A DNA stretch of 64,000 bases. It comes from Escherichia coli. Lineage in GTDB: Bacteria > Pseudomonadota > Gammaproteobacteria > Enterobacterales > Enterobacteriaceae. A program made the position numbers and the translations under genes. The stretch is taken from NCBI RefSeq assembly GCF_017348835.2, contig NZ_CP071375.1; one strand, 5' to 3'. The stretch's first letter is position 1. Each line of letters opens with the position of its first letter. Positions 50,801 to 57,341 of the stretch are shown in pieces. The notes beneath the pieces are model-generated. The model saw nothing but the letters and a program-made list of their open reading frames with translations. It was not told where the DNA came from and ran no database searches.

Positions 50801-53538
50801 ACGCATCCTCTCGTAAAAAAGACCATCCAGGTCGGTTATCCATCCTTTTCGGTGTATCAACTATTCAGAGAGTCTCTGTCGCAGGCATCTCAATCAACCT
50901 TGCCAATCAATCCCTCCCTGGCCGAATACCCGCAACTTTCGTCATCAGTGACTAAAATCACGTTTGCCATCTCCGGATCTTGCCGTTGTTCAACACACCA
51001 CTGCCTGAACGCTTCCCCTTCCAGTAAAGAAAATTCATCCCGATGTTTTTTCCACCAGCTTCGACGCACTCTGGCAACGCTCATTTCCCATGCGTGAGCA
51101 CCGCTGGCATAAGGCTTCACCACACCGTCAATACAGGTAGCCAGCCACAGGGAAACAGACTCTTCAGCCAGACGTGTCGACAGCTTTTCCGGGAGGTAAT
51201 CGTTGATATTGGCGGCATAGCCGGGCCTGAAGTTCAGCATAAACTTTTTAGCCATTGCGCGATCGCAGTAATATTTGCCCACTTGCTCCTGCTCGCTGCG
51301 GGCAAATCCTTCCGGCATTACCACGTCCTCACCGTAGACGGATTCAATAAGAAGCCGGGCTGCGTGTGGCATCTGAATAGCGCCTTGCTCACGCAATACT
51401 CGCTGCGTCAGCCAGATTCGCCCATGATCGGGGTAGACATATGCGCTGTTACGCATCGCACTGCCAAACCATTCGTCACCCGGAGAGTCGTCCCAGACGG
51501 GGGCCAGAATCAGCAATTCAGGAGGGGAACGCTCGTCTTTTCCATCACGCTTTAACTGACCATTAATATCGCGAATATGCCGTTGTAATCGCCCCGCTCG
51601 CTGGATCAGCAAATCAATGGGGGCCAGGTCGGAGATCATTTCGTCCAGGTCAATATCCACACTTTGCTCAATTACTTGTGTACAAACAATGACTTGAGAT
51701 GATCTTTTTAAACTACAATTTTTACCAAAGCGTGCCAGCGTTTCCGTTTCAATTCGCTGGCGATCGCTAAAAGCAAAGCGGCTATGAAAAAGTGAAAGGC
51801 TGGAAGCAGGAATGACGCCGCGGGCAAGTAACTGACGATAAACCTTAATAGCGTCATCGACAGAATTCCGGATCCAGGCGATGCATTTCCCCTGACTTAC
51901 CGCTGATTCGATACGCGCAATACATTCTTGTTCGCTATGAAGCCAACCCACGCTCACGCTACGCTCAACGTCTTTGCGCGTCGCTACCCGGTGCGAATGC
52001 ACATCGGATTTCGTGACATGCGTCAGCCAGGGGTAATCATCCTTTTCCAGGAACGGAGCTTCTTGCTGGCCCTCTGTGCCACGCGCAAAGGCGGCGACAA
52101 GTTTGTCGCGCTGCTGTTGAGATAACGTAGCAGAAAGCAAAATGACGCTGTTTCCGCCACGCACCTGTCGCTCAATCAACCCTTCAAGAATGTACGACAT
52201 GTAAGCGTCACAGGCGTGGATCTCATCAGCCAGCAGGATTTTGTTACTCAACCCCAGAAGCCGCAGATTATTATGTTTAAACGGCATCACTGCCATCATC
52301 GCCTGATCCAGCGTGCCGACGCCAATTTCAGCCAGTAAAGCCTTCTTGTTACTGTCGGCAAACCAGGCTGCACATCCTTGACTGAACGCTTGTTCATCCG
52401 GTTCTTCTGACCCGACTAAATCACCGGACCAGAGTGATTCATTAAAGCGTTCCATTAATGTACGGGCGCTGTGTGCCAGCACCAGGCTGGGGCGGGATTC
52501 TGGCGAAAAGAAAGCAAGCCAGGTTTTGACCAGCCGATCGTACATGGCATTGGCCGTTGCCATTGTTGGCAGGCCAAAAAACAAACCCTGTGCTTTCCTC
52601 GCAGCCATCAACCTGTGCGCCAGGATAAGCGCCGCTTCTGTTTTACCTGCGCCAGTCACGTCTTCCAGAATAAATAACTTTGGCCCTGGCTGGCTGATAT
52701 CCAGATCCAGCACCTTTTGCTGTAATGGTGTCGGGTGCTCAATAAAAGGAAACAGCGTATTAATTCCGGTGAAAGGTGCGGTTTCTGCTTTTGGAGGAAA
52801 GACGGTTAAGGCGTTTTGAGCCTGAACTAAAGTTTTCTGCCAGTAATCTTTAATATCCATTGGGTGTGCGACGCGTGGAAAAAATCGCGTTGACGAACCC
52901 GTCCAGTCTGCGAGTACGACTGTTGCAGAGATATACCAGGAAAGTTGTTTTAAAAGTTCAACGCCCTCGTCATCATCCCAGAATGTGGGAATCTCTATGA
53001 GCGGAAACAGTGCCTTGATTTCAAGGAGAAAATCTCGCGCGGCAGCTTTGTCTTCAGGCAGAAAATTATCCAGCTCATCAATACGGTCAGGTGGTCGACC
53101 ATGATGCCCGGTAGTTATGGACATCCACATCTCTATTACACGTGTAAGTTTACGAGAAGAGAGTGAAGATGAAGGAAGCAACTCCTCACATTCACTTAAA
53201 TAATAATTCCACAGCCAGTAACCCAGCGTTGAATGAGAGATCTTTTCGTAATTCTTTCTGGAACCTTCCGGAATCTTGAGTTCAGGGGCCAGGTAAAGTT
53301 GCTGAAAAGAGCGGGCAAATTTTCCAATATCGTGCCAGCACAACAACCAGGCGAAAAATTGAGCCGCCTGTTCCTTGTCAGAAATCCCTAATTGACGAAA
53401 ATAATCAGCCAGCCCGAAGCAATTTCTTTTAACCATTAAATAGCCCATCGCGGCCACATCCAGCGAATGCCAGCAAAGAAGGTGTGAACCGCCCCGGAAA
53501 TCCTGGAGACTAAACTCCCTGAGAAAGAGGTAAACAGG

Positions 53539-53865
53539 ATGACTAAAAATACTCGTTTTTCCCCCGAAGTCCGTCAGCGGGCGATTCGTATGGTTCTGGA
53601 AAGTCAGGATGAATATGACTCACAGTGGGCGGCAATTTGTTCCATTGCCCCAAAGATTGGCTGTACGCCGGAGACTCTGCGTGTCTGGGTTCGCCAGCAT
53701 GAGCGGGATACCGGGAGTGGTGATGGTGGACTCACCACCGCTGAACGTCAGCGTCTGAAAGAGCTGGAACGTGAAAATCGTGAACTGCGCCGCAGTAACG
53801 ATATCCTTCGCCAGGCTTCCGCTTATTTTGCGAAGGCGGAGTTCGACCGCCTCTGGAAAAAATAA
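53539..53865 (+). CDS. IS3-family transposase OrfA (HTH / leucine zipper)
   Basis: 108-aa [25 protein letters not shown]... that I recognise as IS629/IS1203-type OrfA. Confidence 0.85.
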
Positions 53866-54752
53866 TGCCACTGCTGGATAAGCTGCGTGAGCAGTACGGG
53901 GTCGGACCGGTATGCAGCGAACTGCATATTGCCCCGTCAACGTATTACCATTGTCAGCAACAGCGACATCATCCGGATAAACGCAGTGCCCGTGCGCAGC
54001 ACGATGACTGGCTGAAGAAAGAGATACAGCGCGTATACGATGAAAATCACCAGGTATACGGTGTGCGTAAAGTCTGGCGTCAGTTGTTACGGGAAGGTAT
54101 CAGAGTGGCCAGATGCACTGTGGCACGTCTCATGGCAGTTATGGGACTTGCCGGTGTTCTCCGGGGTAAAAAGGTCCGCACTACCGTCAGCCGGAAAGCC
54201 GTTGCCGCATGCGACCGCGTAAACCGTCAGTTCGTGGCAGAACGTCCAGACCAGTTGTGGGTGGCTGATTTTACCTGGGTAAGCACATGGCAGGGCTTCG
54301 TTTATGTGGCGTTCATCATTGATGTGTTCGCCGGATACATCGTGGGATGGCAGGTCTCATCATCCATGGAAACAACATTCGTGCTGGATGCACTGGAGCA
54401 GGCGTTGTGGGCCCGTCGGCCGTCCGGCACAATCCATCACAGTGATAAAGGTTCTCAGTATGTATCGCTGGCCTACACGCAGCGGCTTAAGGAAGCCGGA
54501 TTACTGGCATCAACAGGGAGTACTGGCGACTCGTATGACAACGCGATGGCTGAGAGCATCAATGGTCTTTACAAAGCGGAGGTAATACACCGTAAGAGCT
54601 GGAAAAACCGGACAGAAGTGGAACTGGCCACACTAACGTGGGTGGACTGGTATAACAATCGACGATTGCTGGAAAGGCTGGGCCATATTCCTCCGGCAGA
54701 AGCAGAAAAAGCTTATTATGCTTCCATCGGAAATAATGATCTGGCAGCCTGA
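53865..54752 (+). CDS. IS3-family transposase OrfB (DDE integrase core)
   Basis: 295-aa ORF with an rve-type catalytic core (...HHSDKGSQY...YDNAMAESINGLYKAE...); its ATG overlaps the orfA stop (TAATG). Confidence 0.85.
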   Translation: MPLLDKLREQYGVGPVCSELHIAPSTYYHCQQQRHHPDKRSARAQHDDWLKKEIQRVYDENHQVYGVRKVWRQLLREGIRVARCTVARLMAVMGLAGVLRGKKVRTTVSRKAVAACDRVNRQFVAERPDQLWVADFTWVSTWQGFVYVAFIIDVFAGYIVGWQVSSSMETTFVLDALEQALWARRPSGTIHHSDKGSQYVSLAYTQRLKEAGLLASTGSTGDSYDNAMAESINGLYKAEVIHRKSWKNRTEVELATLTWVDWYNNRRLLERLGHIPPAEAEKAYYASIGNNDLAA

Positions 54753-55067
54753 GTTCACAGATAAAACACTCTCCAGGAAACCCGGGGCGGTTCAGTGATA
54801 GTCGTCACCCCCTTCTTTCTCGTCGCGTCGGGTTTTTCCCCAGAAATCAAAGAAAGTCACAATATTTTTATCCTTCAGTAAACTTAAAGGATATTTACGC
54901 ATATTTTAAAAATTATCTGTGATATATATCAGCCAATAAAACATTTATATTGTGAATAAATTTATGATTTTCATTTGAAATTCATAATAATAAATAGAGA
55001 CAATATATTCACATAAAAAATATAAATTTAAAAAAGGGTGCAGGAGACCAAACCATCACAATTCAAT

Positions 55068-55094: not shown

Positions 55095-55247
55095 CTACTT
55101 CTTCGATTCGTAAGCGAGAACAGCCTTAAACTCCATACCACGTTCCCTGATACTCAACTCACACAACGAGTCGCCTACCATCAGCGTGAATCCCAGTACT
55201 GTACAACACAGTACGATGATTGCCACAAGGGCATATTTTGTCAGCAT
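55095..55247 (-). CDS. Hok/Gef-family small membrane toxin
   Basis: 50-aa [53 protein letters not shown] with an N-terminal TM helix and the conserved SLCE...AYES C-terminal pattern; not in the supplied ORF track because it is below the size cutoff. Confidence 0.75.
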
Positions 55248-55308
55248 GTCTGTGTAAGTTCACAGAGATATTGCAATTGCCTCCGGATAAGTAAGGGGAG
55301 ATTGCACT

Positions 55309-56330
55309 ATGCAAATGCAGCATCTGATGGTTGGCTATCCTAAGTACTACCAAACGGCCGATTATGCGTTGAGGCTTTCAGTGATGGCTGATATAGCAAC
55401 AATGAGAATGAAGGCTCTGCACTTCTGGGATAAACACGGTATTTCTGCAGCTTCTGAAGCCTTTGGCGTGTCCTGCCGCACGCTTTACTGGTGGCGTCAG
55501 TTACTGAACAAGGAAGGACCTGAGGGGCTAATCCCGCACAGTAAGGCACCTCTGGTGCGACGAAAAAAACACTGGCATCCCGATGTGCTGAAAGAGATTC
55601 GACGCCTCAGGACAGAGCTGCCGAACCTCGGTAAAGAGCAGATTTTTGTTCGCCTGAAGCCCTGGTGCGAACAGCGCTATCTGGCCTGTCCGAGTGTTTC
55701 CACCATCGGCAGAATGATCGCTGCCGCACATGATAAAATGCGGATGATACCTGTGCGTCTGGGATCGCGGGGGAAGGCACTGCTTGTCAAAAAGCGGTCT
55801 GCCAAACCCCGCAGGCCAAAGCACTACCGCCCGGTAAAGACAGGTGAGCTCATTGGGATGGACGCCATTGAGCTCAGAATGGGCGAACTGCGTCGCTATG
55901 TCATCACCATGATCGACGAATGCAGCAATTACGCGCTGGCTGTGCCGTCACTCAACAGTGATATCGTCAATCACTTCTTCAGCCGCGCAGCCCGGTTGTT
56001 CCCGGTCGGTATCAGCCAGATAATCACAGATAACGGAAAAGAGTTCCTGGGAAACTTCGACAAAACGCTGCAGGAAGCCGCTATCAAACACCTCTGGACC
56101 TATCCCTACACGCCAAAAATGAACGCTATCTGTGAACGTTTTAACCGGACGTTAAGAGAGCAGTTTATTGAATTTAATGAGATTTTACTCTTTGAAGATC
56201 TGGCGCTATTTAACCAGAAGCTGGCGGAATATCTGGTGCTGTATAACAGCAAAAGACCCCACAAGGCGCTCGCACTAATGACGCCCGTGGAATATATTTT
56301 AAAAGAGAATAAAAATTGCAATATGTGGTG
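55309..56330 (+). CDS. DDE (rve/integrase-core) transposase, IS481-family-like; element ends not resolved
   Basis: N-terminal HTH (ISAASEAFGVSCRTLYWW) followed by an integrase core (ITDNGKEF...YTPKMNAICERFNRTLREQ...YNSKRPHKAL). The listed ORF runs on to 56739 into cysH antisense, which I take as read-through; the true 3' end is estimated near 56300-56330. Confidence 0.6.
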
Positions 56331-56606
56331 GACCCATACAATGTCTTGCCTCCCTGCAAAGAAGAGACTAACATTCGAATTGCTTAGGTTCGAACGCTGG
56401 CCTCAGGTTGATAGAAATATCGCCTGGGGCTTTTGTCCATCTGGAACCTCGCGAATGCTTAACGCCAGACAGCCTCAAGCACCCGACGCCATTCTATACC
56501 TGATAATTCTTCCAGCGGCGTTCACGTTTAAAATCAGGAATGCTGCTCGCAAAATAAAAACGCCCCCATCATTTCTGACAGAGGCGTTTAATTTATCCGG
56601 CAATAT

Positions 56607-57341
56607 TTACCCTTCGTGTAACCCACATTCCCTTTTTAAGCCAAAGAAACGCGTTTCTTCTTCCGCCATGCCAGGTTCCCATTTACGGGTTGTATGGGTA
56701 TCACCGACCGATAAATATCCTTCGTCCCATAATGGGTGATATTTCAGGCCATGCTTTTGCAGATACTGATATATCGTTCGGTTATCCCAATCGATAATCG
56801 GTAGCACTTTAAATACGCCACGCTGAATTGTCAGCACCGGTAAATTGGCGCGGCTGCCGGATTGTTCGCGGCGCAGGCCAGCAAACCACGTTTGCGCGTT
56901 AAGTTCTTTCAGCGCCCGGTTCATCGGTTCGACTTTGTTGATGTCATTGTACTTTTCAATGCCTTCAACGCCCTGCTCCCACAGTTTTCCGTAGCGTGCT
57001 TCCTGCCAGGCTGCGCTTTCGGTAGCACGGTACACTTTCAGGTTGAGCTTGAGTTTGTCCGTTAACTCGTCAATAAAGCGGTAGGTTTCCGGGAACAAGT
57101 AACCGGTATCGGTGAGGATCACTGGAATATCCGGGCGAATCTGATTCACCAGATGCAGGCTCACCGCCGCCTGAATGCCGAAGCTGGAAGAAAGCACATA
57201 TTCACCGGGCAGATTATCCAGCGCCCAGGCTACGCGGCCTTCAGCGTCCAGTTTTTCCAGTTGGGCGTTAGTTTCCGCCAGCGCCAGAATGCGATCTACC
57301 TTCGGCAGTTCGTTCAGGGCGTTTAGATCGAGTTTGGACAT
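56607..57341 (-). CDS. cysH: phosphoadenosine phosphosulfate reductase
   Basis: 244 aa from [22 protein letters not shown] with C-terminal ECGLH. The listed ORF starts 51 codons upstream. Confidence 0.93.

Follow-up and report, generated by a model that had tools for sequence, protein, structure and literature searches.

IS481 of Bordetella pertussis is an insertion sequence of about 1 kb with TGT tips, a single-ORF DDE transposase similar to OrfB of IS3, and a short target duplication; it duplicates 6 bp at NCTAGN. The hok mRNAs have tac and fbi features that are known from the R1 system. ISKpn28, which resides on Klebsiella plasmids, is a 1,096-bp member of the IS481 family (PMC12816380). 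The hok gene in the interval between cysH and iap/cas3 of Escherichia coli has been named hokX (PMC7232551), and in E. coli B an insertion element is reported to have inactivated this gene (PMC7232551, PMC2654758). Several hok loci of K-12 and B (hokA, hokC, hokE and hokX) are likewise disrupted by mobile elements. In the K-12 cases, which Pedersen & Gerdes are said to have described in 1999, IS150 and IS186 reportedly lie downstream of hok. The locus presented here very probably represents a related event of a different kind, in which an IS481-type element has inserted at the edge of the Sok -35 box of hokX, displacing an intact leader, as is the habit of the ISKpn28 group.

The stretch of E. 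coli DNA that we analyzed (hereafter the window; 64,000 nucleotides of contig NZ_CP071375.1) contains an IS481-family insertion sequence of the ISKpn28 group at 55251-56340 on the plus strand, delimited by the empty-site allele, by copies elsewhere and by a 5-bp duplication. The left inverted repeat (TGTGTAAGTTCACAGAGATATTGCAATTG, 55251-55279) has a TGT tip and is kept in all copies, and the transposase reading frame passes straight through the right inverted repeat (reverse complement TGTATGGGTCCACCACATATTGCAATTTT, 56312-56340). The repeats are imperfect, having in common the TGT tips and an 11-bp core, ATATTGCAATT, that at 55268-55278 is 100% complementary to 56314-56324. The left tip TGTGTAAG starts at 55251 and the right end reads CCATACA up to 56340; the element thus begins TGTGTAAGTTCAC... 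and ends ...GGACCCATACA. One copy of the target duplication, ATGTC, occupies 55246-55250, where it shares the A and T of the hok start codon (minus strand), and the other, recognized by comparison with the empty site, occupies 56341-56345. The empty site, CAGCATGTCTTGCC, has only one ATGTC and occurs in almost every E. coli genome (the wider empty-allele sequence is ...GTCAGCATGTCTTGCCTCC...). The ends and duplications of the element are borne out in five contexts, with perfect 5-bp duplications in 15 of 20 distinct complete insertions. TGT-tipped repeats, a length in the range of ~1.0-1.3 kb and a short direct target duplication, which are structural features of the IS481 family, are all found here. 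The window copy is 1,090 bp long because 6 bp of the canonical 1,096 bp are missing. Alignment to a canonical copy places this in-frame deletion at 55927-55938 (plus strand), where one unit of the tandem GCGCTGGCGCTG (a GCGCTG repeat) is gone, so that ALAL is shortened to AL in the part of the transposase between its first and second catalytic aspartates. The deletion is the sole difference between the window copy and the 1,096-bp copies.

These boundaries replace those of an earlier note on the same DNA, which had placed the element at 55264-56606 and had seen no convincing inverted repeats or target duplication. That span is wrong at both ends, and both the repeats and a 5-bp duplication (ATGTC) exist; it was the comparison with the empty-site allele, which the note itself proposed, that together with the other copies defined 55251 and 56340 as the ends. 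Two short motifs that it offered as suggestive fared differently. ATTGCAAT at 55270 is indeed part of the inverted repeats, forming their core, although its second copy starts at 56315 and not 56316. TTGCCTCC is present at 55277 and 56346 but is no duplication: the first occurrence lies within the element, while the second is the Sok -35 box together with the complement of the hok Shine-Dalgarno sequence.

The transposase is encoded, without a frameshift, by the only ORF of the element. In the window this ORF extends from 55309 to 56739 on the plus strand (476 aa) and has the Pfam domains HTH_28/HTH_32 and rve/rve_3; its best NCBIfam match is the IS481-family model NF033577 (212.5 bits, cutoff 224). 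The transposase of the canonical copy scores 221.6 bits to NF033577, just below the equivalog cutoff of 224, while scores to the IS3 model (92-98 bits) are far below those to the IS481 model. The motifs GMDAI (residue 183), TDNGKEF (240) and ICERFN (274) are all present in the window transposase, and from what is known of rve-fold transposases we take them to be the DD(35)E triad. A PDB sequence search with the transposase returned retroviral integrase cores only, giving no structural hint on targeting. A consensus scan of the left end of the element found no transposase promoter, and inspection by eye found no convincing promoter at a circle junction.

The element has no stop codon of its own for this ORF. 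Within the element lie 343 codons (to 56337, with the last codon ending at 56340), and the 133 further codons are made up of sok, the hok leader and antisense cysH. Across the right end the frame reads ACC CAT ACA | NNN NNT TGN, so that an adjoining -35 box beginning TTGA provides an in-frame TGA stop 9 nt further on; the box of hokX begins TTGC, and the frame therefore continues to 56739, 399 nt past the element. The CDS annotated in E2348/69 ends 9 nt after the element and encodes 348 aa, and in other copies the annotated CDS ends 33 or 42 nt beyond the element, varying with the flank. The cluster of transposase proteins at 90% identity has 2,164 members of many lengths. Judged from these reading frames, the absent stop is apparently a design feature of the element. 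With the stop codon placed in the flank, NCBI labels some copies ‘IS481 family transposase’ and others ‘incomplete, missing C-terminus’ (names for the E. coli element also include ‘integrase core domain-containing protein’); for transposases with a flank-borne stop, the ‘incomplete’ label would be a systematic annotation artefact that can be corrected. If the stop is borrowed from the TTGA box, the length of the transposase, and possibly its activity, would vary with the site. At the window site, transcripts ending at the Sok terminator would carry no stop and the level of transposase could drop; the C-terminal extension and the 6-bp deletion might also influence transposase activity.

The hokX ORF itself is intact (55095-55247, minus strand, 50 aa; Pfam HOK_GEF PF01848, 39.1 bits, cutoff 22), and its product, WP_000956458.1, is the same in empty-site genomes. 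E. coli PE164, which is identical here, is annotated with cas3, an IS3-family element, hok, an incomplete integrase-core protein and cysH-cysI-cysJ. Other elements also occur near hokX, namely IS421 in strain 573 and an IS629-like element in the window. The insertion has parted the hok ATG from its Shine-Dalgarno sequence: the element starts (55251) 3 bp from the ATG, and its other end lies 5 bp ahead of the Sok -35 box. On the other side of the element is the complete hok mRNA leader of 144 nt (56341-56484, minus strand; Rfam RF01794), with a tac-like 5' end, GGGUGCUUGAGGC, at 56472-56484 (minus) and the hok Shine-Dalgarno GGAGG at 56349-56353 (minus). The leader is identical to the empty allele across the aligned stretch (56341-56460) and is now separated from the hok ATG by 1,090 bp. 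When the two parts are rejoined in silico, the uninterrupted hok transcript is ~355 nt long, with the AUG at +143 and GGAGG 7 nt ahead of it. Positions 1-14 and 341-354 of this transcript form 12 of 14 pairs, as judged by sequence complementarity alone; by analogy with the R1 hok/sok model, the latter segment (55036-55049, minus strand) is a candidate fbi-like 3' fold-back element pairing with the 5' end of the mRNA. The rejoined transcript lacks a long mok of the R1 type and has just a 12-codon upstream ORF, MLVSSLQGGKTC, whose TGA overlaps the hok ATG.

The sokX promoter (56346-56374, plus strand) consists of the -35 box TTGCCT (56346-56351), a 17-bp spacer and the -10 box TAACAT (56369-56374). 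It aligns with the R1 Sok promoter, TTGCGC-17-TATCCT; a flank equivalent to TTGCGC-17-TATCCT was found in our insertion set (L051). A generic promoter scan did not flag the sokX promoter because only 8 of 12 positions match. From the fold, the promoter position and the Rfam match, the predicted Sok antisense RNA covers approximately 56381-56445 (plus strand), beginning at a putative transcription start; its fold has -23.8 kcal/mol and its terminal hairpin is followed by CUUUUGU.

With the locus laid out in this way, the remaining statements of the earlier note can be placed. Its IS481-like ORF from 55309 with an HTH and an rve core is confirmed by the Pfam domains and by the best-matching IS481 model, the 61 bases (55248-55308) that it counted between the hok ATG and the listed transposase ATG are exact, and it correctly saw that the ORF has no in-element stop and runs into cysH antisense, ending at 56739. 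Neither of the two arrangements that it considered for the control region holds. A truncated hok/sok control region is contradicted by the complete leader and the sok gene with its promoter at 56341-56484, and a partly retained leader with a transposase start at an internal Met (55384-55408) by the start of the element at 55251, whichever Met is used. The search that it recommended for a Sok promoter and RNA beside the element located both on the cysH side, where the Rfam sok model (RF01794, built in the sense of the hok mRNA leader) has a minus-strand hit at 56335-56484 that scores 105 bits, the gathering score being 59 (model positions 1-157).

The full occupied stretch is present in 34 of 5,426 complete E. 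coli genomes, and its flanks are present in essentially all of them. Strains with an occupied hokX site include E2348/69 (iap-hokX, without cas genes), O103:H2 (cas3-hokX) and the window strain; the neighbour of the occupied hokX is iap in E2348/69 and RM14723 and cas3 in O103:H2 and PE164. The element copies of E2348/69 and O103:H2 show 0 differences in 1,096 positions, while the flanks of the occupied hokX diverge by 4-8% between lineages. Compared to an empty flank from its own lineage, the occupied flank has 1 difference in 1,150 positions in O103:H2 (versus EH031) and 10 in 1,150 in E2348/69 (versus ST131). Identical elements within lineage-matched flanks indicate independent, recent insertions into one site rather than shared ancestry, which points to the same 5 bp of hokX having been struck independently in several E. 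coli lineages. An element that is ancestral and continuous with hok, the case that the earlier note named as refuting its reading, is not what the genomes present, given its occurrence in 34 of 5,426, the match of the flanks to own-lineage empty alleles and the identity of the copies.

For a wider view of target choice, metagenome contigs were scanned with the 30-nt right end of the element (119 loci) and viral contigs with a 25-nt version of it (41 loci); a scan of genome contigs gave a single locus. Including the E. coli loci, the pooled set has 172 insertions with 89 distinct right flanks in 56 site clusters, many of the hok/sok sites being mutually homologous and so not fully independent in sequence. 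Because the right-end sequence is common to ISKpn28, the set mixes the E. coli type, a 93%-identical variant and ISKpn28. In 29 of 56 clusters TTG directly follows the 5-bp duplication, at positions +6 to +8 (background 1.5%, p = 5e-38), and it is enriched at no offset other than +6. In 18 of the 29 TTG clusters the pattern xAxxxT follows exactly 17 bp after the hexamer (background 6.5%, p = 7e-15; against a non-ORF background of 8.6%, p = 9e-13). The spacing of this -10 pattern among 25 TTG sites is 17 bp in 16 cases and 18 bp in 6, with 0-2 cases each at 15, 16 and 19 bp. Among distinct insertions verified by their duplications, 14 of 15 have the TTG and all 14 of these have the -10 pattern; a mirror motif on the left side occurs in none of the 15, showing that orientation is fixed. 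The viral-contig set, which is independent, replicates the target pattern.

Clusters of the E. coli element type taken alone have TTG in 16 of 20 cases, and in a further three a good -10 box accompanies TTTACT, TTTTCA or GTGACA (the GTGACA cluster is a deletion derivative of the hokX site). The signature is also borne by insertion L128, which lies close to the 3' end of a phage gene. About half of the site clusters in the pooled set are without TTG; the majority of them look rearranged and yield no duplication that can be verified, and some may be genuine non-promoter insertions. Hybrid duplications such as that of L180, TCTCC/CCTCC, reveal recombination between copies. Some genomes are rich in copies, among them IAL7255 with 37-38 and the UTME strains. 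Reconstructed empty sites were found at 100% identity in 1,314 genomes for an agrB-like site and in 2,813 for hokA.

Small-RNA promoters are prominent among the targets. Rfam families located directly downstream of insertions are sok, AgrB and STnc100, and in E2348/69 (L005) AgrB starts at 2637, about where TTGAAT-17-TATAAT would put the transcription start. Right flanks resembling hok leaders account for 62 of the 172 insertions, placing about a third of them at Sok promoters. At hokX, hokA, R1-like loci and two prophage loci, one of which is in a P2-like prophage, the hok ORF begins 3-15 nt away from the left end, and ISKpn28 adjoins Hok genes on Klebsiella and Raoultella plasmids. Sok and AgrB are type I antitoxin RNAs, and the small-RNA promoters used are strong and constitutive. 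The heavy use of Sok, AgrB and STnc100 suggests that the elements are drawn to small-RNA promoters, many of which are on plasmids and prophages. If this is true, insertion disarms a toxin, spares the antitoxin and brings the element onto mobile DNA.

The events at the window locus were very probably as follows. A 1,096-bp element of the IS481 family, a distinct member of the ISKpn28 group, transposed into the chromosomal hokX/sokX locus, making the 5-bp ATGTC duplication next to the Sok -35 hexamer and between the hok Shine-Dalgarno sequence and start codon. This follows the general mode of the group, whose members insert one way round, with the duplication bordering a TTG-type -35 box on its upstream side and a -10 box 17 bp further along, and have repeatedly struck Sok, AgrB and STnc100 promoters. 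The insertion split hok from its promoter, leader, ribosome-binding site and small leader ORF and spared sokX. The present sequence agrees in that hok has kept its ORF and lost its promoter, leader, ribosome-binding site and 12-codon upstream ORF; cut off from the control region, the hokX coding sequence is most likely silent. sokX, with its own promoter and terminator, would be left as an orphan antitoxin RNA that probably continues to be expressed. In K-12, sokX alone remains at the locus. We considered whether that orphan sokX is a remnant of the element and rejected the idea, as only ATACA before CATGTC is common to both, which is consistent with chance.

It is improbable that the insertion has instead deregulated hok, with the toxin expressed from element-derived or read-through transcription and free of Sok. 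The hok ORF and the 3' fold-back element are intact, outward promoters are documented in the IS481 family (PMC9330008), and read-through from the hok promoter across the element could still transcribe the gene. The hok ATG is now preceded by ACTTACACAGAC, however, which has no Shine-Dalgarno sequence (the next GGAGG is 33 nt upstream), and a consensus scan found no promoter-like site facing hok in the left end of the element. Retention of the occupied allele in 34 genomes from several lineages is also hard to square with an unregulated membrane toxin. Similarly improbable, in our view, is ordinary near-random insertion in which toxin-inactivating or intergenic hits were merely tolerated and retained. 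Chromosomal hok loci do gather insertion sequences, according to Pedersen & Gerdes (1999) as related in PMC7232551 and PMC2654758, and the IS421 and IS629-like elements near hokX fit that picture. Insertions do no harm when they disable the toxin and leave the antitoxin in place, so selection inflates the hok/sok share; survivorship must add to that large share, and part of the enrichment may reflect tolerance. Near-random insertion does not account, however, for the use of the same 5 bp in different lineages by identical element copies, for TTG enrichment at offset +6 only, for a -10 pattern chiefly at 17 bp, or for one orientation in 15 of 15 verified insertions. The signature at L128, near the 3' end of a phage gene, speaks against it as well. 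Intergenic survivorship as the source of the -10 signal is ruled out by the non-ORF background, against which the enrichment stands. The base-pair precision, fixed orientation and -10 spacing are beyond what selection explains.

Tentatively, and at somewhat less than even odds, we suggest that the ISKpn28 group selects functional sigma-70 promoters and not just TTG, inserting one way round and making its 5-bp staggered cut at about -40 to -36. The transpososome might read the -35/-10 architecture, or it might contact promoter-bound RNA polymerase or polymerase-bent DNA upstream of the -35 box. Targeting by sequence only, which we regard as possible though rather doubtful, would have a transposase domain that binds ATTGCAAT in both repeats also capture TTGC/TTGA-like hexamers, with no role for the polymerase or for promoter function. 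TTGCAA does lie ~20 nt from the tip in both inverted repeats, at the fourth position of the target hexamer 15 clusters have C and 10 have A (nearer to TTGCAA than to the TTGACA consensus), and several targets are exactly TTGCAA. Such binding does not explain why unrelated sites have a strong -10 signal at 17 bp, why TTTACT, GTGACA and TTTTCA are paired with good -10 boxes, or why there is a bias towards small-RNA promoters. Recognition of promoter architecture is the reading that we favour.

Among described elements, ISKpn28 is the nearest to the E. coli element. Both are 1,096 bp long and their nucleotide identity is 74.8% over the full length. The outer ~14 nt on the left (TGTGTAAGTTCACA) and the last 30 nt on the right (AAAAATTGCAATATGTGGTGGACCCATACA) are the same; over 29 nt, the left ends differ at one base. 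ISKpn28 also has no in-element stop, makes 5-bp duplications and inserts adjacent to hok at the Sok -35 box. By ISfinder convention, isoforms have at least about 95% nucleotide identity; at 74.8% the E. coli element is thus related to ISKpn28 but distinct from it and not an isoform. Neither the literature nor a protein-cluster look-up gave an ISfinder-type name for it, and ISErp1 (PMC6963479), considered as a candidate name, is a different element. The literature full texts, which do not cover ISfinder, contained no link between IS481 and hok/sok, no promoter-edge targeting, no preference for antitoxin promoters and no borrowed stop. The copies of ISKpn28 in different hok loci recombine, so that plasmid evolution is touched as well.

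Like the IS481 prototype, the window element has a single DDE ORF, TGT tips, a length of ~1 kb and a short duplication. Unlike IS481, it duplicates 5 bp without a fixed sequence, which are placed by adjacent promoter hexamers. The K-12 cases of IS150 and IS186 differ in that the insertion described here is upstream, at the junction of the start codon and the Sok -35 box, and is made by an element that uses such sites systematically. Disruption of hok by insertion sequences is well known. The target selection is unusual and statistically well supported; it would help account for the frequent disruption of hok/sok loci.

Bacterial insertion sequences with base-pair-precise, oriented targeting of a general functional element are rare. 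Target-selective elements include Tn7 at attTn7, IS1397 and ISKpn1 at REP sequences, the res-hunting Tn5053-type transposons, and Ty3 at Pol III start sites. The E. coli element resembles them in inserting in one orientation at defined functional DNA, plausibly as a safe haven or as a route onto mobile DNA. None among these is known to use the upstream edge of sigma-70 -35 hexamers. The element, with its single ORF, encodes no accessory targeting protein. Promoter-edge homing would give a tractable system in which a one-protein transposon reads promoter architecture or polymerase occupancy.

In K-12-type genomes (locus L178, EV36, 1500-1520 vs. window 56336-56345), homology to the hokX locus starts exactly at CATGTC, which is the hok start codon. 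The body of hok is missing, leaving sokX as an orphan, and the endpoint of this deletion falls within a few bp of the target site of the IS481-family element. The motif ATACA, common to the K-12-type locus and the element end, is probably a chance match. The hokX copy of the element in strain RM14723 (L174) has also undergone deletion: the bases adjoining its right end are absent, the flank begins CCTCCCTGC, and the TTG of the Sok -35 hexamer has been removed, so that Sok expression was probably lost as well in this derivative. In other strains (locus L177 in strain 573, and H17, a match from the search of 5,426 complete E. coli genomes), the IS4-like element IS421 is found on the 3' side of hokX, between this gene and cas3, and an insertion element is reported to interrupt hokX in E. 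coli B as well (PMC7232551). The hokX locus is thus a target of several unrelated elements.

The Rfam model ‘sok’ (RF01794) represents the same strand as the hok mRNA leader and runs from the 5' end of that mRNA to the hok AUG (window 56335-56484); its matches therefore give the strand opposite to Sok RNA. A strong terminator hairpin on the minus strand (window 56558-56589), probably that of cysH, precedes the start of the hok mRNA by approximately 70 bp. Inspection by eye of the interval between this hairpin and the hok mRNA start identified no convincing hok promoter. On the cas3 side of hokX there is an IS3-family element of 1,310 bp (window 53485-54794). Its ends (TGAACCGCCCCGG...) are of the IS629/IS1203 type, and it is flanked by a 3-bp duplication, GTG. 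The insertion seems to have hit the 5' portion of cas3, which would mean that the window strain has a broken type I-E cas3 gene and that the small partial ORF on the hokX side (window 54795-54902), listed in the annotation simply as a hypothetical protein, is a remnant of it.

A 93%-identical variant of the IS481-family element occurs between iss and iroB on ColV-type plasmids (L004/L070) and between galF and yegH (L003). In the plasmid copy the reading frame is broken by a frameshift, and the two flanks show no matching duplication. The left flank terminates in ATACACAG, which repeats the right tip of the element itself and may be what is left of a tandem arrangement or of a circle junction. 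For copies of ISKpn28 on Klebsiella and Raoultella plasmids (L180, L181), the duplications on the two sides do not agree (TCTCC/CCTCC and CCTCC/ATAGC), which implies that copies residing in different hok loci have recombined. Such recombination offers plasmids a way to rearrange or fuse.

Outside hok loci, the promoter TTGAAA-17-TAAATT is a frequent insertion site in five prophage contigs (L132, L137, L013, L019, L141), where the Rfam sRNA STnc100 (RF02076, 80-108 bits) is encoded directly downstream. ISErp1, another IS481-family element in E. coli, is flanked by a 7-bp duplication, TATAATG, that contains a perfect -10 hexamer (table in PMC6963479); this hints that an affinity for promoter elements could be wider within the IS481 family.
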